A stretch of 64,000 nucleotides of DNA, taken from positions 23,335-87,334 of the forward strand of contig JAJFGZ010000050.1 of NCBI GenBank assembly GCA_021775855.1, given 5' to 3'. A model generated the notes under the pieces. That model worked only from the letters and a program-made list of their open reading frames with translations, did not search any database and was not told the DNA's origin. Below, piece by piece: positions 1 to 42,255 of this stretch. The first letter of the stretch is position 1; each line of letters starts with the position of its first letter. The stretch is from Hyphomicrobiales bacterium (GTDB lineage: Bacteria; Pseudomonadota; Alphaproteobacteria; Rhizobiales; NORP267). The position numbers and the translations under genes were made by a program.

Positions 1-1074
1 CGCGCCCATTTTCTCCATCAGAAACAAGGGCCCTACAGACATGGTGCCATTGGCGTTGACCGAGAAACTATCTTTGATGAGCACAGAAGACTGTGGCATC
101 TGGGTTGTTTCTTCGTATTTGCCGTAAGCGCTGGCACCCTGTGTGTTCGAGTAGTTCATCACATACCGCCCGCCATGGGTGGCGGAGACGTAGGGAACGC
201 TTGAGAACTGGGTTGCCCAGGCACGCCAGTTCCGGGTCGCGGGGACGCCGGTATTGGCATACGCGGCCTTCATTTCGCTATACAGGCAATCGTAGGCTGC
301 TGCCGCTTCCGCGTTGGTCAATTCGGCACCGCCGCCACCTGCTCCACACGGGTTGCAGGCGCCACACGCCGATGCGGCGCAAGGATTGCTCGCGGCACAA
401 GGGTTGCACGGGTTGCCGGCACCACACGCGCCACAGGCCGAGGCTCCACATGCCGAAGCACCACAGGCGGACGCTGCGCAGGGATCTTTAGCCGCACACG
501 GGTTGCAAGCGCCACAGGCGGACGCGCCGCACGCGGATGCGCCACAAGCGCCGCACGCACCACAGGCAGAAGCACCACACGGATTCTTGGCGGCACAAGG
601 GTTGCAAGCCGACGCCTGCTGCAGGCGCGGTACGACACATTCCTGGCTCACATTTGCCAAAGCTGCGCCACAGGCACCACACGCTCCGCATGCACCACAC
701 GCCGAGGCGGCGCAAGGGTTGCTTGCCCCACAGGGATTGCAGGGATTGCAGGCGCCGCAGGCGGAAGCACCACAGGCACTTGCTGCACACGGGTTGCTGC
801 CACCGCAGGCAGACGCGCCGCAGGCGGAAGCACCACAGGCTGACGCGGCGCAAGGGTTTTTAGCTGCACATGGGTTGCATGGATTACAAGCACCACACGC
901 GCCGCAAGCCGATGCACCGCACGCCCCACACGCGCCGCAGCCGTCACTTGAGGCAATCGCCATATCGGGCGCCGAAACCATCATCACGCCCGTGACGATA
1001 GTCCCAACAGACATGCCCACGATAAGCGGCATAGCTGCAGCTGTTGAAAAAAGCTGCTTCCTGGAAAATTTCAT
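1..1074 (-). CDS. Secreted cysteine-ladder repeat protein; only the N-terminal 358 codons are in the window. Sec signal, then ~208 aa of Cys/Gly/Ala/Ser/Asn/Pro repeats, then a globular C-terminal domain.
   Basis: Hand translation of the reverse strand from ATG (1074-1072) gives 358 sense codons down to position 1 with no stop. It is absent from the ORF track because the stop lies outside the window. GGAGGGAG Shine-Dalgarno sits 5 nt upstream. N-terminus MKFSRKQLFSTAAAMPLIVGMSVGTIVTGVMMVSAPDMAIA is signal-like. Residues 42-249 consist of ACG / SACGA / NPC units (45 Cys by my count). The rest reads ELTNAEAAAAYDCLYSEMK...THGGRYVMNYSN...LFLMEKMGA. Confidence 0.8.
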   Translation of the reverse strand, partial: MKFSRKQLFSTAAAMPLIVGMSVGTIVTGVMMVSAPDMAIASSDGCGACGACGASACGACGACNPCNPCAAKNPCAASACGASACGASACGGSNPCAASACGASACGACNPCNPCGASNPCAASACGACGACGACGAALANVSQECVVPRLQQASACNPCAAKNPCGASACGACGACGASACGASACGACNPCAAKDPCAASACGASACGASACGACGAGNPCNPCAASNPCAASACGACNPCGAGGGGAELTNAEAAAAYDCLYSEMKAAYANTGVPATRNWRAWATQFSSVPYVSATHGGRYVMNYSNTQGASAYGKYEETTQMPQSSVLIKDSFSVNANGTMSVGPLFLMEKMGA

Positions 1075-1287
1075 CTGGTCTCCCTCCGAAGATTTAAGTT
1101 TTTGCCAAGCCGGCCATGGCGTATTTGCTTTGTGCACTTTGGTAGCGCCGGTACTGCCCCCAATAATTCCAGTTCGCAGCGTAGCAACCTATACGGACAA
1201 TGCGATTCACTTGAGTTCACATAGATGTGAGGCACCCAACTCAGGAATTGTCAGGATAATCAGTTTACGGACCGATCATCCCTCAAG

Positions 1288-2229
1288 TTACTCAACCTGT
1301 TCGAGAACCAAGCGAAATCCAACAAGTATATGCTTGATGCCGTTGGGCCGGGAGTGGCGTGCTGACGGACGGCAAATTCCGCACCCCCTATCGTCCCAGG
1401 ACCCGCCTTTGACGATCCAGCGACCCGGATTTGCGGGCGTTGACGTCCACTCAAATACCTGTCCAGCCGGGTCGAGCATGCCAAACGGACTTTCGCCGGC
1501 GGGGAATTGTCCAACCGGCATCGTATCGAACGGACCGCCGTCATGGCTGTTCAACAGATTGCTGTCAAAGTCTTCGCCCCACGGGAATCTCCGTCCGTCG
1601 GTTCCCCGCGCCGCTTTTTCCCATTCGGCCTCGCTCGGCAGCCGCCAGACGGCTCCCGTCCGGGTGCTTAGCCATTCGGCATATGCCTCAGCGTCATCAT
1701 GGGAGACCATCACAATGGGGTGGTTTTCCCGCCCCTCTGGGGGCCTGCCGTCCAGCCAGGCGTACCGCCGCGTGCGCTCGTACGGATGGATCAATCCGTA
1801 ACCTTCCCAGGTTTCACGATCGACGTCCGGGGCGCGGTAACCTGTATCAGCGACAAACAGCGCGTAGTCAGCGTTGGTCACCAGATTCTTCATAATATTG
1901 TAGGCGGGCAGGTCTACGTTTTGCCGCTCAGGCTCGCTTTCGTACCAGCGACCGCGTCTTGTGGCGCTATGGCCATATGCTGCTTCGTCCAACAGGTAGG
2001 CCGCCTCGCGTTCGGCGCGGTCAGAACCGGTAATATAGGGGCCAGAGGGAATTAAAATTGTCTCCGGCGCGGGGATACCCGGCCCCACTTCGTTTTCGCC
2101 CGCCCGGGCGGCAACGGCGTACAAAATTGTTGCCGTGCACAAAATAAATAAAACCCGAAACACGGAAGCTGGAATCAGCTCCGCATTCCGGGTTCCTAAT
2201 CTGGACGGCGACCGAAAAGAATTGGTCAT
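1288..2229 (-). CDS. FGE/SUMF1/EgtB/PvdO-family (formylglycine-generating-enzyme-like) protein with N-terminal membrane anchor or signal
   Basis: 313-aa ORF with FGE-sulfatase-domain hallmarks: HPIVMVSHDDAEAYAEWL, WRLPSEAEWEKAARG, FPWG, GQVFEWT, KGGSW...VGFRLV. Hydrophobic N-terminal segment VFRVLFILCTATILYAVAARA. A CGIC pair follows GGSW. Confidence 0.85.
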   Translation of the reverse strand: MTNSFRSPSRLGTRNAELIPASVFRVLFILCTATILYAVAARAGENEVGPGIPAPETILIPSGPYITGSDRAEREAAYLLDEAAYGHSATRRGRWYESEPERQNVDLPAYNIMKNLVTNADYALFVADTGYRAPDVDRETWEGYGLIHPYERTRRYAWLDGRPPEGRENHPIVMVSHDDAEAYAEWLSTRTGAVWRLPSEAEWEKAARGTDGRRFPWGEDFDSNLLNSHDGGPFDTMPVGQFPAGESPFGMLDPAGQVFEWTSTPANPGRWIVKGGSWDDRGCGICRPSARHSRPNGIKHILVGFRLVLEQVE

Positions 2230-2253
2230 ATCGCCGTCCGCTATCCGCTTAAA

Positions 2254-2547
2254 CTAGTCTGCCGAGCAGGGGTTGCAGCCAGCCGCGGCGCACGGGTTTT
2301 TCGCCGCGCAAGGATTGCAGGCGCCGCATGCCGAAGCGCCACAAGCAGATGCGGCACACGGATTACAGGCTGCACAAGCACCGCATGCGCCACAGGCGCC
2401 ACAGGCACCACACGCATCGCTGCTTGCATACGCGGAGGAAGAACCCGCGACGGAAGCTGTCAGCATGACCGGGGCGGCAAGCGCCAGGCCAAGGACGACA
2501 GGTAATATAGCTGTGGAGGACAGAAGGCTTCTTTTATTGCTACTCAT
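2254..2547 (-). CDS. 97-aa secreted cysteine-ladder peptide (41-aa signal-like leader plus 56-aa core with 14 Cys)
   Basis: ORF-track protein MSSNKRSLLSSTAILPVVLGLALAAPVMLTASVAGSSSAYA|SSDACGACGACGACGACAACNPCAASACGASACGACNPCAAKNPCAAAGCNPCSAD. GAGGGAG Shine-Dalgarno upstream. Same repeat units and same post-signal SSD[AG]CGACGAC start as the 1-1074 protein. Confidence 0.75.
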   Translation of the reverse strand: MSSNKRSLLSSTAILPVVLGLALAAPVMLTASVAGSSSAYASSDACGACGACGACGACAACNPCAASACGASACGACNPCAAKNPCAAAGCNPCSAD

Positions 2548-2643
2548 GGATATTACTCCCTCAGGATTGCGTCACGCTGAATTGGTGACAGATGACATCA
2601 TTTCCGGCTCATCCGGTTATGATTAGGTGTGGGCAGGTGGGCC

Positions 2644-3126
2644 CTAATTTACGACAATCGAATAGTTCGGGGTGGGGTTGAGTGGACACGAATACACATA
2701 CTGGATTCCCGCCTCCAGAACGACTTCATAGTCAAGCGTGGTTCCCGTATTGAGTCCACCGCCTGAAACACTCGTCTTGGTCAATTTATGTATCGGATTG
2801 CCAAGCTGGTAATCAGTTTCCCGCAACCAGAACCCGAGCGGGTACGGGACATTGCGGTTTTCAACCCGGAAAATATATCGCCCTGGCGCCAGGTTCAGAA
2901 CCTTGGCCTCGGCCAATCGCGCTTCGCCCGATTCGTTGTTGATATCGACACAATCAGCGGCCGACATGGGCATATATCCCCGGTTGACGTCGTTCTCCGA
3001 TTCAAGGAACTGACACCCGACCTGGGTCAAATTAATAATAGTTGCTTCCTGCGCTCCAACCGGTGAAGCGATACCCGCTACACCGAACAAAATCGCACTG
3101 GTCAGCCATTGAAGCTTGCTGAGCAT
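2644..3126 (-). CDS. Secreted hypothetical protein (~160 aa, beta-rich, possibly cupredoxin/Ig-like sandwich)
   Basis: I prefer the internal ATG at 3126 (MLSKLQWLTSAILFGVAGIASPVGAQE is signal-like). The longer 192-aa ORF start lacks a signal peptide. No family recognised. PGRYIFRVENRN and YVYSCPLNP resemble beta-sandwich proteins, but no His/Met copper ligand set is visible. Confidence 0.6.
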   Translation of the reverse strand: MLSKLQWLTSAILFGVAGIASPVGAQEATIINLTQVGCQFLESENDVNRGYMPMSAADCVDINNESGEARLAEAKVLNLAPGRYIFRVENRNVPYPLGFWLRETDYQLGNPIHKLTKTSVSGGGLNTGTTLDYEVVLEAGIQYVYSCPLNPTPNYSIVVN

Positions 3127-3274
3127 GAATTCGTCCTTCAGCCACGCCCGCCCCCGGGTTAGCCTGATTGAAAGCTCAAGATTGCATCGACAAACCCAAA
3201 GCGCAACAAACGAGGCGTACAAGTCCTTTCAACTTTTTGTCATTGAAAGTTGGTCGGGACGTTCTGCCGGCGGT

Positions 3275-4003
3275 TCAGGACTGTTTTTTGATGGCCTTTT
3301 CAACCGCGGTCGATTGTTTTTTCACGTCTACCTTTAGAATCGACGTGAGTTCAAGTTCGCGGTCTTCATACACATCCTTGTCAGGATGACTTTCCTGCCA
3401 ATCCGCAATGACGCGGTCGCGTTCCCACAACAAGGCCTCGATTTGCGGGCGGAACAAGATAATCATCGCCGAAATCCAGTGATTGGTGGCGAGGCACGGG
3501 TAGGTGTGATCCATGAGAAACCCGTCGAGGAGGCGAATTGCGTCTTCGGCAGAATAAAAAGTTTCTCCTGTCACCCACCTGTTTGTTGAAAATAACCCGA
3601 TCGGATAGCCGGGACGGTTCATCGAGACCGCGATCAAATGGCAAATCGCGTCCTTTCCGGATGGAACCTCGGCATCGCCGCTATACGGTACGGGTTCGAT
3701 ATCATCCGGCATCCCTCCCGAGCGCATGAAAGTATGAAAATGGCCATGTTCACCCGATTCCTTGCGGTGGGCGTGGTAATAATATTGGCTCTTGGTCTCG
3801 CTATCGAAAATATCGCCCTTGGGGAAGTGATCGAATTCTACAAACTTTCCCTGATTGGCGAGACATTGACCGACCACATTTGCGTTGGCCTTGCGCAGGA
3901 CCCTGTAACATTCTTCGATGCGCAGGCTGGCTGCCCTCATGGCCTCGAGTTGTTCGGGCGGCAAATCGCTGAATTCTGTCTTGAATTTCATCGCTTGTTC
4001 CAT
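3275..4003 (-). CDS. Conserved-looking hypothetical cytoplasmic protein with a His-rich motif
   Basis: 242-aa ORF without a signal peptide. Contains YYYHAHRKESGEHGHFHTF (6 His in 19 residues). Co-oriented and upstream of the cysteine-ladder cluster. Family not recognised. Confidence 0.55.
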   Translation of the reverse strand: MEQAMKFKTEFSDLPPEQLEAMRAASLRIEECYRVLRKANANVVGQCLANQGKFVEFDHFPKGDIFDSETKSQYYYHAHRKESGEHGHFHTFMRSGGMPDDIEPVPYSGDAEVPSGKDAICHLIAVSMNRPGYPIGLFSTNRWVTGETFYSAEDAIRLLDGFLMDHTYPCLATNHWISAMIILFRPQIEALLWERDRVIADWQESHPDKDVYEDRELELTSILKVDVKKQSTAVEKAIKKQS

Positions 4004-19851: not shown

Positions 19852-20157
19852 ATGAATCGCAAGGACCGTCTCGCCGCACGCAAGGATGGGGAATTGGACA
19901 CAACCGGATTTTTGCGGGTCGCCGACAAATTCATCGATGTGGCGAACCGTGAAAACAAGAAGGTGAACGCCACCCAATTGCATATGGTGTTTCTTTACGC
20001 CTCAACCCGCTACAGCGCGTATGTGGCCAACGCGATCCTCAATGTGGACAATCACGAAGAATTTGTGGAGACCATGACCGGGCATTACCAGGAAATGCTG
20101 CGCCAACATCTGGCTGACGAAAACCTGAGTGCGCCGGCTAAAAATACATCGAATTAA
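19852..20157 (+). CDS. DUF3144-like small protein
   Basis: 101 aa. FIDVANRENKK...LYASTRYSAYV pattern recalled for DUF3144. Confidence 0.5.
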   Translation: MNRKDRLAARKDGELDTTGFLRVADKFIDVANRENKKVNATQLHMVFLYASTRYSAYVANAILNVDNHEEFVETMTGHYQEMLRQHLADENLSAPAKNTSN

Positions 20158-21371
20158 GCGCCATCCCGCAATATGGCTGCGATGTCGTCGTGCCCAGCCA
20201 TCTCGGCGGCTTCGATCGCCGTCCACCCGCCATTGTCGCTCAAGGTTGGATCGGCTCCGGCATCCAGCAACTTCTGTACTATATGGATATGGCCGCCATT
20301 GGCGGCCCACATGATGGCTGTCGATCCATCCGAGGAATTGCGCAAATCGGGCGGAAAACCCTCGGCCAGAAGATAGTCCACGATATCTTCAAATCCGCTA
20401 CCGCTGGCCAGGGTCAAGGGATGGCGGCCGATGATGTTTTCGGCGTCCAGCGGCAACCCGGCATCAACCAGTTTCTGAACAATTTCTAAAATGCCTGAGG
20501 CGACGCCTGCAGCCAAATGGCCGCCACGAACATCAGGCGCGACGCCAACAAGATCCTGCGCGGCCCCTCGCGCGATCAATATATCTACGAGTGTAGCATT
20601 GCCATTTTCCGCAGCCATGGCCAAAGCCGTGCGGCCTTTGTGATCAAAATCGTGGAGACCGGCCCCGCTATCGAGTATCAGTCGAACCCGGTCGGTTTCG
20701 CCATTGGCGACAGCCGACATAAGCGGCGTCCAGCCGTCATCCGCCGCCTGATTGACATCCGCTCCCGCCGCCAGCAATTCGGTAATGACCGCAATCGCGG
20801 ATTCGCGGGGGTCGTCGGCAACGGAATCGCGGCGGCTCTGAAGCGCGAAATGCAGTGCGGTCATCCCGTTGCCTGCGCTGCGGGCACCAACATTCGCTCC
20901 GGAATCAAGCAACAGAGCAATCATTGTCGCGGAATCGCTGCGGGCAGCCACCATCAACGCTGTTTTGCCACCACGGGCTTCCTGCACCTCCAGATCGGCG
21001 CCGGATTCCACCAAAAGGCGAACCGCGCCGGGTTTGGATTTATCGGCCGCCTCCATCAGGGGCGTCCAGTTTTCGCGATTCGCTCGATCCGGGTCGGCGC
21101 CCTGATCGAGCAGAATTTCCATGGCGGCAAGACTGCCGCGTTCGGCGGCGCGGATAAGCGCGGTTGTGCCTGACCCGGTTTCCGGCCAGATCGCGTCGGG
21201 GTCGACGCCGTTGCGGAGCAAAACCCGGACAATATCGGCGCGGTCTTCTGTCACCGCCGCCAAAAGCAGTTCGGCGGGTGCGCGTTCTGATGCTGTTTGG
21301 GCGACAGCCGGGATGACGCCCGCAAGCAGAATTAGAAAGGCAAGAAGTCTAGGTAACATTGTCTTCGCCAT
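20154..21371 (-). CDS. Periplasmic ankyrin-repeat protein
   Basis: Start chosen at MAKTMLPRLLAFLILLAGVIPAVAQ (ATG 21371; alternative 21359). About 11 ankyrin-like repeats (G.TALM.AA..G....V..LL..GAD). The longer track ORF (to 21578) would overlap the upstream gene by 230 nt. Confidence 0.8.
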   Translation of the reverse strand: MAKTMLPRLLAFLILLAGVIPAVAQTASERAPAELLLAAVTEDRADIVRVLLRNGVDPDAIWPETGSGTTALIRAAERGSLAAMEILLDQGADPDRANRENWTPLMEAADKSKPGAVRLLVESGADLEVQEARGGKTALMVAARSDSATMIALLLDSGANVGARSAGNGMTALHFALQSRRDSVADDPRESAIAVITELLAAGADVNQAADDGWTPLMSAVANGETDRVRLILDSGAGLHDFDHKGRTALAMAAENGNATLVDILIARGAAQDLVGVAPDVRGGHLAAGVASGILEIVQKLVDAGLPLDAENIIGRHPLTLASGSGFEDIVDYLLAEGFPPDLRNSSDGSTAIMWAANGGHIHIVQKLLDAGADPTLSDNGGWTAIEAAEMAGHDDIAAILRDGA

Positions 21372-21945
21372 TGTCCCCGTCTCCGACCCCGGCTTCGTCG
21401 TCTTTGGCCGTTGATTCAACCGGAATATCTTCGTTCTCCGATATGCTGGTCGCTTCAGGCACCGCCGTGTTCTCACCTTCAGCAACGGCATTATCTTCCG
21501 GGCGCACCTCTTCGACGACCTTTTTGCCCTGGTTGAGATACCCCTCGCCCGCCTGATACGCTGATTGGATGGCCACACCCTTGTTGCTCATGTCGGAATA
21601 GTCTTCGCCATATTCCAACAAGCCGTCAACAACCCTGAAGGAGGGGTCGGTACGCCACAATTTTTGCAGCGCCATGCGTTTGATATGTTGCGGCACTGAT
21701 TTTTTTAGGAATGTCGAGAAATCGGAATCAATATCCAGTTTTTCCACGTCTTCTTCTGTGGGGATAAAGTCCGATTCCCCGTCCGGGGATAACGAAACCT
21801 CATCCGCTTCGGCAGGAACGGTGTCCGGGTCGGCCTTAAGCAATTCGAGATCATCCAGGGGGCCGGAACTCTCAACTTCCTGGACAGCGACTTTTCGCTC
21901 GGACCAGCGCGCGAGAAAACCTTTGTCGTCCTTCTCACTGGTCAT
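21349..21945 (-). CDS. DUF3306-family protein
   Basis: N-terminal GFLARWSERK, an acidic middle region, and C-terminal ALQKLWRTDPSF..DGLLEYGEDYS, as recalled for DUF3306. Confidence 0.7.
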   Translation of the reverse strand: MTSEKDDKGFLARWSERKVAVQEVESSGPLDDLELLKADPDTVPAEADEVSLSPDGESDFIPTEEDVEKLDIDSDFSTFLKKSVPQHIKRMALQKLWRTDPSFRVVDGLLEYGEDYSDMSNKGVAIQSAYQAGEGYLNQGKKVVEEVRPEDNAVAEGENTAVPEATSISENEDIPVESTAKDDEAGVGDGDNGEDNVT

Positions 21946-28675: not shown

Positions 28676-30115
28676 TTACTCCTGTTGTTGAGCGCCGGAT
28701 ACCGAAGCCGACGACGGACGTGATTCATTTATAGCGCCATTTTCGGGCGATGTGGCGATTTTCAGGTATGCGATCAAAGCATCACGATGTTCCACATCTT
28801 TCAACCGCTGGAGCGGCATCTTGGATCCCGGGGTGACAACTTCGGGGCCTTCGTCGAACAGCCGGGCTATTGTTTCCTCGTTCCAGACAATACGCGAATT
28901 TTCCAGGCCAGGCGAATAGGGATAGTCGGGCAATGACCCTGCCCTCCGCCCGAAGAGGGCGTACAGGGTTGGCCCGGCACGATTTTGGCTGTCGGCGGAA
29001 AGGCTGTGACAAATGCTGCACGTGCGCACGAATTCGCTCTCGCCCGGACCCATATCCGCGCGCACCTGGTAGCGGCGCGGGAATTCGCTGGTTACCGGTT
29101 CAAACGCAGCCCGCGGCGAGATCATCCACCCGGCCACGAAATCATCCAGACCGGCGCGGTAGATCGTGGTCCCATCGCCCGAAATGGCCAGCGACCAGGC
29201 AGGGCCGTACGGGTCTTCCATTTCGTGCAGCAGATCCCAATTGTCCATATTCCAGACGCGGATCGTGCCGTCGCTACCGCCCGCAGCCGCAAGGCCGTGT
29301 AGCGGCCACACGGCAACCGCCAGCACCGGTCCCATATGCTCGGCCAAGGTTTCGACCCCGCCTGTCGCAATATCAACAATGGCAACTGCGCCATTATTGG
29401 CGCCAATCAGGATTTGAGTTCCGCCGGGTAGCAGGCGCATAACATTGATTCCCCAGCCATTGCGGTAAACCAACCCTTCGCTCGATCCGGTGACGACATC
29501 CCAGACGCGGATTGTGCCGTCATAACTTGCGGTGTACAGCCGGTCCCCATCGGGCGAAAATTCAACCGAGTTGACGTTGCCGCGATGCCCCTCCATCACC
29601 GGGCCCGGCTCAAGCGTCTCCAGGTTCCAGATCCGCGCCGTATTGTCCCAACCCGCGCTCGCCGCCAATCGTCCGTCGGGCGAGACAGCAACCCCGACCA
29701 CTTTGACACCGTGTCCCTCGAAGCGGCGCAGTAGCTGGTTCTGTTCCAGATCCCAGACTGCCACTGTACCGTCGTCGCTCACTGAAACCGCTCTGTCGCC
29801 TGCGGGAGTGATGGCGACATCATTGACGGCAGCATCGTGTTCGGTGAACCTGAATTGCTGATGCGGCCCGTCAGAATCGATTGACCAACTGATCAGCGAG
29901 TAATCGAAGCTCGCGGTCATGGCAGTCCGGCCGTCTTCCGAAATATAGATCGACCGAATTGGGCCCCCGTGACCCTCAAACCGCATCGGTGACCCGGCCT
30001 GGACTTGAGATTGCGCAAGGAATGCCGCAGTGAAGATCAGCAACACCAGCTTGGCAATGCCCGGACTCCCCACGGCAAGCGTGTGCCATCGCAATACCGG
30101 GTAAACCCTAGCCAC
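28676..30115 (-). CDS. Periplasmic WD40 beta-propeller fused to a C-terminal class I cytochrome c domain
   Basis: Signal-like N-terminus. Repeated ...GH.G.V.SV..SPDG......S.D.T.R.W... units. C-terminal CSICH, GPTLYALFGRRAGS and GSKMP (Met ligand). GTG start overlaps the fdhC stop by 1 nt. Confidence 0.8.
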   Translation of the reverse strand: MARVYPVLRWHTLAVGSPGIAKLVLLIFTAAFLAQSQVQAGSPMRFEGHGGPIRSIYISEDGRTAMTASFDYSLISWSIDSDGPHQQFRFTEHDAAVNDVAITPAGDRAVSVSDDGTVAVWDLEQNQLLRRFEGHGVKVVGVAVSPDGRLAASAGWDNTARIWNLETLEPGPVMEGHRGNVNSVEFSPDGDRLYTASYDGTIRVWDVVTGSSEGLVYRNGWGINVMRLLPGGTQILIGANNGAVAIVDIATGGVETLAEHMGPVLAVAVWPLHGLAAAGGSDGTIRVWNMDNWDLLHEMEDPYGPAWSLAISGDGTTIYRAGLDDFVAGWMISPRAAFEPVTSEFPRRYQVRADMGPGESEFVRTCSICHSLSADSQNRAGPTLYALFGRRAGSLPDYPYSPGLENSRIVWNEETIARLFDEGPEVVTPGSKMPLQRLKDVEHRDALIAYLKIATSPENGAINESRPSSASVSGAQQQE

Positions 30116-32061: not shown

Positions 32062-34932
32062 CTATGCACGCTCGACGCGGCAAAGCGTCACTTTGGATTC
32101 CTGCATATGGGTCACGGAATCATACCCATATGTGCCAACCGTGTTCGATGATTCACCGAGCACGTAGGGGTCCGCCCCCTCAGGATATTTGTCCCGAAGA
32201 TCCTCGCCCTGGAATTGGCCACCGAAATGGAACGGCATGAACACAAGATTGCGGTTCACCCTTTCCGTAATCATCGCCATCACTTTGACCCTGGTGCCTT
32301 CAGGCCCATAGATCCAGACCTGTTCACCGTCGCGAATGCCGAGATCGTTGGCATCGCCCGGATTGATCTCTGCGAACATGTCCTGCTGCAGCTCGGCCAG
32401 CCAGGGGTTGGAGCGCGACTCGTCGCCACCGCCTTCATATTCAACAAGGCGACCGGAGGTGAGGATCATCGGAAAATCAACCGAGAAATCCTGGTCCTGG
32501 ATCGTCTTATAGAGCGTTGGCAGACGAAGTTTCTGGGTATCCTCGTAGGTCGGATAATCAGCAACCAGGTCACGCCGCGGCGTATAAAGCGGCTCTCTGT
32601 GGATCGGAATTGGATCCGGGAAGGTCCACACATTGACCCGCGCCTTGGCGTTGCCGAACGGGGCACAGCCATGGGCAATCGCAACACGCTGGATACCGCC
32701 AGATAAGTCGGTTTTCCAGTTTGTACTCTCGCCGGCTATGCCGTCGATCGTAGCGCGTTCCTCAGCGGTCAAGTCACCATCCCAGCCAAGCCGTTGCAGC
32801 ATGGCCATGGTGAACTCGGGATAACCATCCTCGATTTCGGACCCGATTGGATAGGAACCCTCGGCAAGAAGGTTGGTGCCGTTGCGCTCGACGCCGTAAC
32901 GGGCGCGGAAGCAAAGGCCGCCTTCGGCAACCGATTTGGATGTGTCATACAGCACTGGCGTGCCGGGATGACCCATTTCCGGGGTGCCCCAGCATGGCCA
33001 GGGAAGGCCATAATATTCACCGTCAGCCGGTCCGCCATTGGCGAGCAGCGTGGTGCGGTTGAATGTATGCTGGTTTGCCATATGCAACTTCATCCGCTCC
33101 GGTGACTGACCGGTATAACCGATGGTCCACATGCCCCTGTTCCATTCGCGGGTGATGTCCTCTACCAGAGGTTCGTCATTCTCGACGGTGATGTTCTTGA
33201 ACATCTCGTCGGCAATACCGAATTTCACCGCGAATTTATACATGATCGTGTGATCGGGGAGCGATTCGAACACGGGTTCGACGACCCTGTCGCGCCACTG
33301 GAACGACCGGTTGGATGCGGTTACCGAGCCGTAGGTCTCGAATTGGGTCGAGGCCGGTAACAGGTAAACACCATCCTTGCGGTCGTGGAGCACCGCTGAA
33401 AGTGTCGGATACGGATCAACCACGACAAGGGTGTCGAGTTGATCCATCGCCACTTTCATCTCGCCAAGACGGGTTTGCGAGTTCGGCGCGTGGCCCCAGA
33501 ACACCATGCCACGGATATTCTCAGGCTGGTCGATATTTTCCTTGTCTTCAAGGACACCGTCGATCCAGCGCGACACCGTGATCCCGGCCCGTTCCATGAG
33601 ATCCTGCGAGCCAAAACGCCCCAGGAGCCAGTCATAGTCGGTTTCCCATACCCGGGCCCAATGCTTCCACGATCCGGTTTTCAGGCCGTAATAACCCGGC
33701 AACGAATGCGAGAGCACGCACATGTCAGTAGCACCCTGCACGTTGTCATGGCCGCGGAAAATGTTGCAGCCACCGCCCTGGGTACCGATCGTGCCAAGGG
33801 CAAGACCAAGAACGCAATAGGCGCGGGTGTTGTTGTTACCGGTCGTGTGCTGGGTCCCGCCCATGCACCAGATGATGGTGAAGGGCCGGTTGTTGGCCAA
33901 TGTCCGGGCGACGCGGCGAAGCTGCGAGCCTGGAACACCTGTGACACGTTCGGTTTCTTCCGGGGTCCATTTGGCGACTTCGGCCCGGATATCTTCCATG
34001 CCGTAAACGCGCTGGCGGATGAATTCCTTGTCTTCCCAGCCGTTCTCAAACACATGCCAGAGAATGCCCCAGATGAGCCCGACATCGGTCCCCGGGCGCA
34101 GCCGCACAAATTCATCGGCATGGGCGGCCGTACGCGTGAAGCGCGGGTCGCAAACGATAAGCGACGCGTTGTTCACTTCCTTGGCCCGCATAATATGCAG
34201 TAGCGAGACCGGATGTGCCTCGGCCGGATTTCCGCCAATCAGGAAAATGGCCCTGGAATTGTGGATATCGTTCATCGAATTGGTCATCGCGCCGTAGCCC
34301 CAGGTGTTGGCAACACCAGCGACCGTGGTCGAGTGACAAATCCGTGCCTGATGATCCGTATTGTTCGAGCCCCAATAGGCGGCGAACTTGCGGAAGAGAT
34401 AAGCCTGTTCGTTGCTGTGCTTGGCCGAACCGAGCCAGTAGACTGAATCCGGTCCTGACGACTCGCGAAGGGCTAGCAGACGATCACCGACTTCGTCGAT
34501 CGCTTCGTCCCAAGTGATCCGGGTCCAACGCCCATCGACCAGTTTGGTCGGGTACTTCAGCCGGCGTTCGCCGTGGGCGTGTTCGCGCACAGACGCACCT
34601 TTGGCGCAATGGGCGCCGAGGTTGATCGGGCTGTCGAAACCAGGCTCTTGGCCAATCCAGACGCCGTTCGTGACTTCCGCCATGACCGTACAGCCAACCG
34701 CACAATGGGTGCAAACCGATTTGATGATTTCAACCATCTCGTCGCCAGACGTTGCCGTCTGCGCTTTCGCCACCATACCGCTGGACAACGTCGTCGCTGC
34801 CGCAATGCCACCAATTGTCAGGCCTGAGCGGCGCAGGAACGTCCTGCGGTCGACGGCACCATTGGTGAGCTCCGCGAGGGCCGATGACAACCGGGGGCCA
34901 GATGCAACCCCGCCAGTCTTCTTCCTAAGCAT
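32062..34932 (-). CDS. fdhA: Formate dehydrogenase alpha (bis-MGD molybdo/tungstopterin) subunit, Tat-exported, cysteine type
   Basis: Tat motif DRRTFLRRSG. N-terminal Fe-S motif CTHCAVGC. DHQARICHSTTVAGVANTWGYGAMTNS aligns with E. coli FdnG DNQARVUHGPTVA...GRGAMTNH, with Cys in place of Sec. 956 aa. Confidence 0.9.
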   Translation of the reverse strand: MLRKKTGGVASGPRLSSALAELTNGAVDRRTFLRRSGLTIGGIAAATTLSSGMVAKAQTATSGDEMVEIIKSVCTHCAVGCTVMAEVTNGVWIGQEPGFDSPINLGAHCAKGASVREHAHGERRLKYPTKLVDGRWTRITWDEAIDEVGDRLLALRESSGPDSVYWLGSAKHSNEQAYLFRKFAAYWGSNNTDHQARICHSTTVAGVANTWGYGAMTNSMNDIHNSRAIFLIGGNPAEAHPVSLLHIMRAKEVNNASLIVCDPRFTRTAAHADEFVRLRPGTDVGLIWGILWHVFENGWEDKEFIRQRVYGMEDIRAEVAKWTPEETERVTGVPGSQLRRVARTLANNRPFTIIWCMGGTQHTTGNNNTRAYCVLGLALGTIGTQGGGCNIFRGHDNVQGATDMCVLSHSLPGYYGLKTGSWKHWARVWETDYDWLLGRFGSQDLMERAGITVSRWIDGVLEDKENIDQPENIRGMVFWGHAPNSQTRLGEMKVAMDQLDTLVVVDPYPTLSAVLHDRKDGVYLLPASTQFETYGSVTASNRSFQWRDRVVEPVFESLPDHTIMYKFAVKFGIADEMFKNITVENDEPLVEDITREWNRGMWTIGYTGQSPERMKLHMANQHTFNRTTLLANGGPADGEYYGLPWPCWGTPEMGHPGTPVLYDTSKSVAEGGLCFRARYGVERNGTNLLAEGSYPIGSEIEDGYPEFTMAMLQRLGWDGDLTAEERATIDGIAGESTNWKTDLSGGIQRVAIAHGCAPFGNAKARVNVWTFPDPIPIHREPLYTPRRDLVADYPTYEDTQKLRLPTLYKTIQDQDFSVDFPMILTSGRLVEYEGGGDESRSNPWLAELQQDMFAEINPGDANDLGIRDGEQVWIYGPEGTRVKVMAMITERVNRNLVFMPFHFGGQFQGEDLRDKYPEGADPYVLGESSNTVGTYGYDSVTHMQESKVTLCRVERA

Positions 34933-41076: not shown

Positions 41077-42255
41077 TTACACCACCTCGAAATGGGCCAT
41101 CCAGCCCAGTTCGGCGAATTCAGCCTGGTGGGCGTGGAACATGTACATGCCCGGACCGTGGTCTTCGAAGGTAAACTCTATGATACCGCGCTGGGCCTGA
41201 CACTGCATAACGGTGTCGATGGTTTTATGGGTCGGCTCCAGGGTGGTGCCGTGGTCGTAATAATTGAAAAAATTGGCGTGCAGGTGGAACGAATTTATGG
41301 GGTCGAACTCTGTTATATTGACCAGGTAAATCCTGACCGGCTTGTCCCGTGTGATCCGGACGGGTTTTTTCTCGAACGCGAAAGCAATGGAATTGACGGC
41401 GTAAATTTCGTTGTCGTCATCGAAATTTGTATCAAACCCGTTCATCACCATTACAAATTCCTGCCATTGCCGGTTCTCGGGCGAACCAAGCAGGCGGCTC
41501 TGGGCGACGTCTTCAAATTCGGGGTGCCGCGCTGGGTCGGGATCGACAATGAATGCCCCGTACAAACCACGATGCAGGTGGCGCTTAAACGGAAACGAGT
41601 GGCAGTGATATAAGTGACAGCCAAACGGCTCGGCAAAAAACTCGTAAGTGAATTCATCCCCCGGAATGACCTCGCCGGCGCCGGGTACGCCGTCCATGTT
41701 GGCGGCATGGATGCCGTGGAAATGCATGGTGTGGGGGTGACTGCCCTCGTTCATAAAATGGATGCGGATCAATTCCCCCTCGGTCGCCCTGAGGGCGGGT
41801 CCGGGTACCCGGCCGTTATAGGTCCAGGCGGGAAAAAACACTCCGGGAGCTATTTCAATATCTTTGTCGACCGCCGTGACGTTGAACGTTCGGACGACCT
41901 GCCCGTCAGGCGCGGTTGTAACAATCCCGGTCTCCCAATCGGTCAGCATATCGTAGGGATCGAAGCCGTTGCGGGCGTGATCCACTTCACCCACCACGGA
42001 GTTTTCGCCAAAGGCACCGTGACCAGGAACACCCGTATAGGAGGATGCGTTTTGAAACGAGCCGGGAATTCGCCCGTCCGTACGGCCGATCGCTCTGCTA
42101 TCCAACAGGGCATCCGCCGGTGTCACACCACTTCCCAGCCGTGCCGCCGCTGTCCCGCTCACCAGCGCGCCAGTGCCCGTGGCTAATCCCGCCTTCAGCA
42201 GGCCGCGTCGCGACAACAGGCGTTTCAACAAATTTGTGGATCCGGCCATCATCAA
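41077..42255 (-). CDS. Tat-exported two-domain multicopper oxidase
   Basis: Tat motif SRRGLLKAG. Cu-ligand patterns HTMHFHG, CHLYHCH (H-C-H type 1/trinuclear link), FHLH and MFHAH. 392 aa is too short for a 3-domain laccase. Confidence 0.75.
   Translation of the reverse strand: MMMAGSTNLLKRLLSRRGLLKAGLATGTGALVSGTAAARLGSGVTPADALLDSRAIGRTDGRIPGSFQNASSYTGVPGHGAFGENSVVGEVDHARNGFDPYDMLTDWETGIVTTAPDGQVVRTFNVTAVDKDIEIAPGVFFPAWTYNGRVPGPALRATEGELIRIHFMNEGSHPHTMHFHGIHAANMDGVPGAGEVIPGDEFTYEFFAEPFGCHLYHCHSFPFKRHLHRGLYGAFIVDPDPARHPEFEDVAQSRLLGSPENRQWQEFVMVMNGFDTNFDDDNEIYAVNSIAFAFEKKPVRITRDKPVRIYLVNITEFDPINSFHLHANFFNYYDHGTTLEPTHKTIDTVMQCQAQRGIIEFTFEDHGPGMYMFHAHQAEFAELGWMAHFEVV

Follow-up and report, generated by a model that had tools for sequence, protein, structure and literature searches.

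What does a protein related to formylglycine-generating enzyme (FGE) do when the two cysteines of its copper loop are spaced CxxC and its gene lies between genes for secreted proteins made of cysteine repeats? The question is raised by the minus strand of a 64,000-nucleotide stretch of DNA from a Hyphomicrobiales bacterium (assembly GCA_021775855.1, contig JAJFGZ010000050.1, positions 23,335 to 87,334; hereafter the window). We found that the FGE-like protein has the FGE fold, carries an invariant Cys pair, falls into a clade of its own, and is linked across genomes to Cys-repeat proteins and to a protein of family DUF6969. Judged by its sequence, it is not a canonical FGE, nor NirV, EgtB or PvdO, and the neighbourhood and the Cys pair together point to an undescribed periplasmic cysteine-chemistry system. 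The reading we prefer, although we give it somewhat less than an even chance, is a periplasmic, probably copper-dependent Cys oxidase acting on the neighbouring repeat proteins. The genes form a compact, co-directional row on the minus strand (window 1..4003), which in order of transcription comprises the following features.

3275..4003 (-): DUF6969 protein, 238-242 aa (Pfam PF22308, E=1e-78)
2644..3126 (-): cup160, a predicted secreted protein of 160 aa (tblastn co-occurrence and alignment)
2254..2547 (-): small, predicted secreted Cys-rich protein of 97 aa (open reading frame; homologues share the architecture)
1288..2229 (-): FGE-like protein of 313 aa, CG[VI]C subfamily of the FGE-sulfatase superfamily (open reading frame, PF03781, structure model and Foldseek)
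2172..2101 (-): hydrophobic N-terminal helix of the FGE-like protein, residues 20-43, a putative export signal or membrane anchor
1372..1383 (-): codons for C283-G-I-C286, the relocated Cys pair (homologue conservation and alignment with true FGEs)
1..1074 (-): large, predicted secreted Cys-rich repeat protein with a cytochrome P460-like haem domain, continuing past the window end; Cys-rich region at about nt 945..289, P460-like part from nt 288 onward
622..639 (-): CVVPRL linker in the middle of the Cys-rich region of the large protein

Family and cysteine pair of the FGE-like protein

The FGE-like protein matched the FGE-sulfatase domain in Pfam (PF03781, E=1.4e-41, residues 54-308) and consists of this domain only, without the N-terminal DinB-like iron-binding domain typical of EgtB, OvoA, SenA and OvsA. 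Its N-terminal hydrophobic helix or signal peptide predicts export; this and all other signal peptides were judged by eye. In a Foldseek search, the AlphaFold2 (AF2) model (pLDDT 85, pTM 0.80) had the FGE fold and matched ToxD, CalU17, EgtB, FGE and PvdO at E values of 1e-14 to 5e-19 (about 1e-15 for FGE structures), with pFGE also matched. A structure model had been proposed as a check in an earlier reading made from the DNA letters alone (hereafter the sequence-only reading). The model established the fold; the structural matches were about equal, so the fold alone does not discriminate among the family members.

The best sequence matches in the PDB were ToxD of the toxoflavin pathway (7spq, E=2e-30) and CalU17 of the calicheamicin pathway (E=4e-20), with true FGEs reaching only about 1e-10. 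Both are single-domain FGE-fold proteins of unclear chemistry and also the best solved structural matches (Foldseek 5e-19 and 7e-19). However, they share only 29-33% identity with the window protein by Foldseek (30-44% over aligned regions), their alignments end before the Cys loop, and they belong to another clade, for which there is no curated family model; genes of toxoflavin or enediyne pathways were not seen nearby. The 120 closest database homologues are 58-100% identical and carry generic names only, such as 'formylglycine-generating enzyme' in public annotation. Across these homologues, the segment GGSWDDxGCG[VI]CRPAARHxRP..KHIL[IV]GFR is essentially fixed, and C283, C286, H148, H170, H292 and H300 are 100% conserved. 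The clade shows the same constancy in an N-terminal segment, SDRAEREAAYxLDEAAYGH, which FGE and NirV lack. Mean column identity was 62% across classes in a 35-sequence alignment of the whole protein. A search of 1.84 billion cluster representatives for FGE-fold relatives returned roughly 95,000 representative relatives. In a neighbour-joining tree, built without bootstrap, the CGxC proteins all fell into one clade within a larger unnamed group, with FGE, ToxD, CalU17, OvsA and NirV apart. By these comparisons, the protein belongs to a large, strongly conserved, unnamed clade, and the phylogenetic placement that the sequence-only reading had called for did not put it inside a clade of known function.

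The sequence-only reading had also allowed for a non-FGE member of the family and named EgtB, PvdO and NirV, and none of the three survived. Scores against curated NCBIfam models were far below the cut-offs for EgtB (TIGR03440, 68.8 against 360) and PvdO (NF051459, 59.6 bits against 500), as they were for SenA (69.7 against 420) and OvoA (50.1 against 400), and the protein reached no curated NCBIfam model. NirV, encoded downstream of nirK in denitrifiers, is likewise a periplasmic single-domain FGE-fold protein of Alphaproteobacteria. However, the reference NirV, encoded next to nirK on a plasmid of Rhizobium phaseoli, is only 29-36% identical to the window protein, has other Cys in place of CG[VI]C, and forms the most distant branch of the tree, while nirK is absent from all family loci searched (L001-L167) and from beside the window gene. 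Some homologues are longer (496-516 aa; P0008 and P0012), with a CGxC-type FGE domain followed by a generic FGE-sulfatase domain without the Cys pair. This tandem arrangement rules out a fusion to DUF6969 as the source of their length. Among the top 150 cluster representatives, no CNPC or haem fusion to a CGxC-type FGE domain was found.

The presence of two cysteines spaced CxxC in the FGE copper loop, as read earlier from the letters, was confirmed in the 313-aa open reading frame (ORF), which contains KGGSWDDRGCGICRPSARHSRP, with CGIC encoded at 1383..1372. The Cys-pair segment reads GGSWDDRGCGICRPSARH, whereas true FGEs read GGS[FH]LCxxxYCxRYRPAARH; in the loop, GGSWDDRGCGICRPSAR, the C-x4-C spacing in a GGS[FYH]xC...YCxRYR context is not present and RYR is absent. 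A MAFFT alignment with five true FGEs from other loci shows common GGS and RPAARH flanks, and the loop between them is 2 residues shorter in the window protein. In this alignment C283 stands opposite the second FGE Cys and C286 opposite the Tyr of RYR, with a gap at the first FGE Cys. The assignment of C283 and C286 to individual FGE Cys is ambiguous, although conservation in sister clades favours C286 as the anchor position. The nearest sister clades (P0274, P0280, P0283, P0298, P0334 and P0336) keep the C286 position and have the partner Cys within the GGS motif (GC[SA]W..GxC), and other relatives carry one Cys or none (P0266 and P0288; L010, P0281 and P0301). This variation appears to be that of an active-site Cys moving around a fixed position. 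That the partner Cys migrates suggests to us that selection has acted to keep two thiols at the FGE metal position and not to keep a fixed sequence. Within the clade, the CG[VI]C pair is invariant, both in 120 of the 120 closest homologues and in the 35-sequence alignment. A structural Cys2His2 zinc site formed with H292 and H300 is unlikely, as both His also occur in Cys-less relatives and in some true FGEs and are thus not specific partners of the Cys pair.

Compared with FGE/SUMF1 of Thermomonospora curvata, Streptomyces coelicolor and human, the window protein shares the fold, the Pfam domain and a Cys pair in the C-terminal loop between GGS and R-x-A-A-R, and it has the RPAARH..H.GFR tail in common with bacterial FGEs. 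It differs in having CxxC instead of CxxxxC, no RYR, two missing FGE-specific insertions, the invariant N-terminal segment described above, and predicted export. Its gene also differs in adjoining poly-Cys repeat and DUF6969 genes, in place of a gene for a sulfatase or another CxPxR partner (in the window and the annotated related loci).

Cysteine-repeat partners and the conserved neighbourhood

A recount of C-N-P-C-[ANGS] gave exactly the numbers of the sequence-only reading, namely eight copies in the downstream large gene (1074..<1) and three in the upstream 97-aa gene (2547..2254). In these two genes, CGAC/CGASAC units match CNPC in frequency (13+5 CGAC), and the repeat regions are built almost wholly of A, C, G, S, N and P. 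The accompanying statement that the repeats contain no Arg held for the repeats proper; one Arg, the only one in the large Cys-rich region, lies in the conserved non-repeat linker CVVPRL (639..622). Linkers of the form C[VIFWY]VPRL recur in large haem-fused proteins of distant taxa (L002, L008, L103, L129, L168 and L169). Such a linker could be a processing or recognition site.

The 97-aa protein has a predicted signal peptide ending in AYA, followed by a core of about 54 aa with 14 Cys in CGAC, CNPC and NPCAA units, and in the small proteins the predicted AYA cleavage site directly precedes the first Cys. Its homologues are all annotated as 'hypothetical' and have the same architecture. The large protein could be followed in a near-identical longer contig (L001), which extends the gene row beyond the window end. 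There it has 417 aa in full, with a C-terminal cytochrome P460-like domain and a CAECH haem motif, the domain being recognised from a Pfam Cytochrome_P460 match on the called gene and a weak PDB sequence match to P460 proteins. Across 65 repeat proteins, 55% of the Cys are preceded by Asn-Pro, and the commonest Cys-Cys spacing is 3 (1010 of 1578 gaps of at most 12 residues). A CxxCH haem site is present in 28 of 32 large proteins, and of the remaining four, at least one is truncated by the end of its contig. The haem partner is either P460 or, in Gammaproteobacteria, a cytochrome c flanked by repeats. All repeat proteins start with predicted signal peptides.

To see whether this association extends beyond the window, 80 further metagenome loci were collected by the family patterns GSWDD[KSR]GC and [LI]KHIL[IV]GFR, and a core set of 39 non-redundant loci was defined by flanks of at least 2.5 kb on both sides; the controls were 75 loci (1.09 Mb) around unrelated FGE-fold genes, passed through the same Cys-repeat filter. 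CNPC-type ORFs were found in 23 of the 39 core loci by the simple filter and in 25 after inspection, which added L103 and L129. The filter found none in the 75 control loci, and in the window it found only the two known repeat genes. Because the Cys pair is invariant in 120 of 120 homologues and CNPC-type ORFs occur in 23-25 of 39 loci against 0 of 75 controls, the occurrence of the CG[VI]C pair beside Cys-repeat genes is not due to chance. The distance between repeat gene and FGE-like gene is 0-405 bp, the strand and the gene order vary, and 44 of 89 loci have a repeat gene within this range. DUF6969 is found in 30 of the 39 core loci, often overlapping the FGE-like gene or less than 150 bp away, cup160 in 15 and a P460 domain in 20; 36 of the 39 have DUF6969 or a Cys-repeat gene.

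The same partners, that is, small secreted CNPC proteins, large CNPC-haem proteins, DUF6969 and cup160, are present in loci from metagenome-assembled genomes (MAGs) of Hyphomicrobiales, in an Inquilinaceae MAG and in Gammaproteobacteria MAGs. The linkage also holds in Rhodospirillales-like MAGs, and the neighbourhood is conserved across Alpha-, Gamma- and Betaproteobacteria. The link could also be followed from the partner's side, as a homologue of the small Cys-rich protein in Anderseniella lies in a row of DUF6969, FGE-like, small CNPC and large CNPC-P460 genes. The clade's link to secreted Cys-repeat proteins and DUF6969 is thus strong and reciprocal, and it survives gene rearrangement. Not all clusters are complete: Pelagibius litoralis and about 12 other loci have the FGE-like gene and DUF6969 with no Cys-repeat gene nearby, and L084 and L104 have the FGE-like and CNPC genes without DUF6969. 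Among the cultured carriers are Denitrobaculum tricleocarpae, Pelagibius litoralis and Anderseniella.

No other gene accompanies the FGE-like gene as constantly as DUF6969, whose product has no predicted signal peptide. None of its 4333 homologues is named, and our literature search found no paper on the family. It has an invariant patch of five His and one Glu, HxH..EHGHFH (H77, H79, E85, H86, H88 and H90), on two neighbouring strands. Its AF2 model is of high confidence (pLDDT 88, pTM 0.89); against the PDB, there was no Foldseek match below E=0.6 and no sequence match. The cup160 protein has three invariant Cys and a C-terminal motif, YSCPLNPTP[ND]Y, which recalls a copper loop lacking His and Met. 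Its identification as a cupredoxin was nevertheless unsupported, as it had no Pfam, NCBIfam or PDB sequence or profile match.

Candidate functions of the system

If the FGE-like protein is an enzyme, we infer the following scheme. The predicted exported protein would work in the periplasm, most likely dependent on copper and O2, and its substrates would be the Cys of the neighbouring secreted poly-(Cys-Asn-Pro)/(Cys-Gly-Ala) proteins, one small and one haem-fused. By an FGE-like mechanism, the substrate thiol would join the bis-thiolate metal site as a third ligand and then be oxidised, and the reaction might yield formylglycine, a different thioaldehyde-derived group, or a defined disulfide or cross-link. 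The His-rich, cytoplasmic DUF6969 would take part in this pathway as well. The window protein also conserves the Glu, Trp and Ser taken to line the FGE site, but so does the whole superfamily.

Several observations weigh against such a Cys oxidase. Many FGE-fold proteins are not enzymes, for example PorK/GldJ and the immunity proteins of type VI secretion systems. Among the 39 core loci, 14 have no nearby Cys-repeat gene, DUF6969 being the more constant neighbour, and in L168 DUF6969 and a CNPC gene occur with no FGE-like gene within 6 kb. Copper-homeostasis genes are not a recurring feature of the clusters in the annotated loci. The repeats also lack the substrate Arg of CxPxR, and the partner in L103 has CGAC repeats only, with no Pro, so that C-x-P is not required. 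Finally, FGE segments unmatched by MAFFT, which presumably line the substrate groove, are deleted or replaced in the CGxC clade. These last points bear on the proposal of the sequence-only reading that an FGE relative has been retargeted to a Cys-Pro substrate. Retargeting as such is favoured by the gene linkage, the predicted export signals and the retained Cys pair, but specific C-x-P recognition is weakened by the CGAC-only partner, by the deleted FGE segments and by DUF6969 being the most faithful neighbour. With a CGAC-only partner in existence and the FGE insertions missing, the likeness of C-N-P to C-x-P may be coincidental.

A more far-reaching reading is that the CG[VI]C protein and DUF6969 install a new multi-site modification on haem-tethered (Cys-Asn-Pro)n/(Cys-Gly-Ala)n arrays. 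The result might be poly-formylglycine, a thioaldehyde-derived group, a defined cross-link or a metal-thiolate ladder, and the modified arrays would constitute a new class of periplasmic proteins with a redox or metal-binding role, widespread among Proteobacteria of marine and sediment habitats. We put this forward as a speculation, and as one that is rather unlikely to hold in full.

The closest precedent is found in the bufferins, Sec-exported Cys peptides that are modified by MNIO enzymes to chelate copper (PMC11626156; PMC12452194). Both systems have small Sec-exported Cys-rich precursors beside an oxidative metalloenzyme (here a putative one) and an uncharacterised partner, and the small proteins of our loci, as read from sequence, have the Sec signal followed by a Cys core that marks bufferin precursors. 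However, the candidate modifier here is an exported FGE-fold protein, and no MNIO (DUF692) or DUF2063 was found among the Pfam-annotated neighbours in L001, L002, L084-L086, L168 and L169. The cores differ as well, being long low-complexity (C-N-P)n/(C-G-A)n arrays, often of more than 200 aa and haem-fused. Rare Buf1|Cytochrom_C|FGE-sulfatase fusion proteins have been described in the bufferin family (PMC12452194), and they independently bring together a Cys peptide, a haem domain and the FGE fold. Our literature search found no paper on an FGE-like protein with Cys-rich or precursor peptides, on P460 with Cys-rich extensions, or on the motif strings.

Only a minority of the FGE relatives, some 95,000 cluster representatives, have a known function, and FGE is, to our knowledge, the only mononuclear Cu(I) bis-thiolate oxidase. 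As the clade keeps a two-Cys site and has obvious candidate substrates, the existence of other FGE-fold cysteine chemistry is directly testable with the 97-aa peptide. If the enzyme does modify the repeats, it would represent a new enzyme class for peptide and protein modification and possibly a tool for multi-site aldehyde tagging. It would also give a role to DUF6969, with its thousands of members and no PDB fold match, and explain the poly-cysteine-tailed haem proteins common in marine sediment bacteria.

It is also possible, and nearly as plausible as a Cys oxidase although unlikely when taken by itself, that the FGE-like protein is a metal-handling or thiol-redox partner that makes no covalent modification. 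The poly-Cys proteins would then be periplasmic soft-metal sponges or metal-thiolate 'wires' on haem domains, for Cu(I), Hg or Cd, or possibly As, sulfane sulfur or selenium, and the CxxC would be either a metallochaperone site (Atx1/CopZ/MerP-like) or a redox disulfide that maintains the repeats in a reduced or properly paired state. Cu(I)/Hg(II) carriers and thiol-disulfide oxidoreductases both have CxxC as their classic motif, the same C-x-x-C spacing dominates the repeats (the 1010 of 1578 gaps given above), and the large proteins are haem-fused (28 of 32 with CxxCH). A PCuAC copper chaperone (L085), DUF302 and a YeeE-type sulfur transporter (L168, L086) lie near some clusters, and the bufferins provide a precedent for Sec-exported copper-buffering Cys peptides (PMC11626156; PMC12452194). 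By contrast, the fold of the window protein is that of FGE (C-type-lectin-like) and not the thioredoxin or ferredoxin-like fold, so that it shares with the thioredoxin-fold oxidoreductases only the CxxC. In addition, no efflux pump, MerR/CueR regulator or other metal-resistance gene recurs in the annotated clusters, the 62% mean column identity over the whole protein suits a catalyst better than a simple carrier, and the role of a cytoplasmic DUF6969 is left unexplained. Metallothioneins and Csp offer a parallel in their very high Cys content and CxxC spacing, and some Csp are periplasmic; however, they have no sequence relation to the proteins described here, whose Pro-, Asn-, Ala- and Gly-rich repeats are joined to P460 or cytochrome c and occur in linkage with an FGE-fold protein. 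Should a metal or redox system prove correct in place of the Cys oxidase, it would be a new periplasmic thiol-buffering device.

A more doubtful explanation, which we consider improbable, takes the FGE-like protein and DUF6969 as the functional unit, acting on something other than the Cys repeats, such as a small thiol or metabolite or the maturation of P460 or c-type haem, with the Cys-repeat genes being frequent but dispensable. It draws on the adjacency of DUF6969 in 30 of 39 loci, often with overlap or within 150 bp, and on the pairs that lack a nearby Cys-repeat gene (Pelagibius litoralis and the other such loci). The best matches, ToxD (E=2e-30) and CalU17 (E=4e-20), are moreover proteins of small-molecule pathways, and P460 domains occur in 20 of 39 loci. 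Against this, the FGE-like protein has a predicted signal peptide and DUF6969 does not, which makes direct cooperation on one substrate awkward. The gammaproteobacterial clusters carry cytochrome c in place of P460 yet retain the repeats, which makes the repeat, and not the haem type, the shared element. FGE-like and Cys-repeat genes also occur together without DUF6969 (L084, L104), and no small-molecule biosynthetic genes recur.

An ordinary FGE serving a sulfatase encoded elsewhere in the genome is close to refuted: it has in its favour the FGE-sulfatase domain, the public name of the homologues and the tail common to proteobacterial and actinobacterial FGEs (RPAARH..H.GFR), but the protein lacks CxxxxC, RYR and the first FGE Cys, the clade is separate (PDB E of about 1e-10 to true FGEs against 2e-30 to ToxD), export is predicted whereas bacterial FGEs are cytoplasmic, the conserved neighbours are unrelated to sulfatases, and neither the 64-kb window nor any of the annotated related loci was found to contain a sulfatase. 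The absence of a sulfatase from the window, first remarked in the sequence-only reading, is based on long ORFs that contain neither the sulfatase signature nor CxPxR, and on the lack of a sulfatase Pfam match among the 22 real-frame window ORFs of 330 aa or more with a scan or a prior annotation; the annotated related loci likewise had no Cys-type sulfatase or CxPxR partner.

Other features of the locus and the window

Elsewhere in the window are genes for an ankyrin-repeat protein (20154-21578, -), a WD40 beta-propeller protein (28676-30115, -), a two-domain multicopper oxidase (41077-42255, -) and a molybdopterin oxidoreductase (32062-34932, -) with Mo-cofactor genes (an FdhD-MobA fusion, MoeA and MoaA). 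None of these genes adjoins the FGE-like cluster. A 495-aa ORF on the plus strand (314-1801), antisense to the FGE-like and large Cys-rich genes, is a shadow ORF arising from the GC-rich repeat codons, and gene callers took wrong frames in the repeat region of related contigs (L001 7291-7920). DUF302 proteins edge two clusters (L086 9437-9919; L168 4033-5727), accompanied in L168 by a YeeE/YedE-type sulfur transporter (PF04143), which hints at sulfur or selenium chemistry.

Within the gene row, 24 nt separate the stop codon of the 97-aa gene from the start codon of the FGE-like gene. An FNR/NnrR box was seen upstream in L002 and L005 but not in the window. Two further features accompany the large Cys-rich gene.

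L001 8436-8924; L002 10680-11174; L168 2700-3188: predicted secreted SNase-like protein of 162 aa in Hyphomicrobiales-type clusters
1218..1229 (-) in the window: palindrome CACATCTATGTG, a candidate regulator site conserved among orthologous intergenic regions

The SNase-like protein, which has a weak Pfam match and several conserved Cys, is encoded 3' of the large P460 gene, just beyond the window. The palindrome CACATCTATGTG sits in a 40-nt block (about 1190-1236) upstream of the large Cys-rich gene that is kept in L001, L002 and L005, and it may be a regulator binding site in these three Hyphomicrobiales loci.

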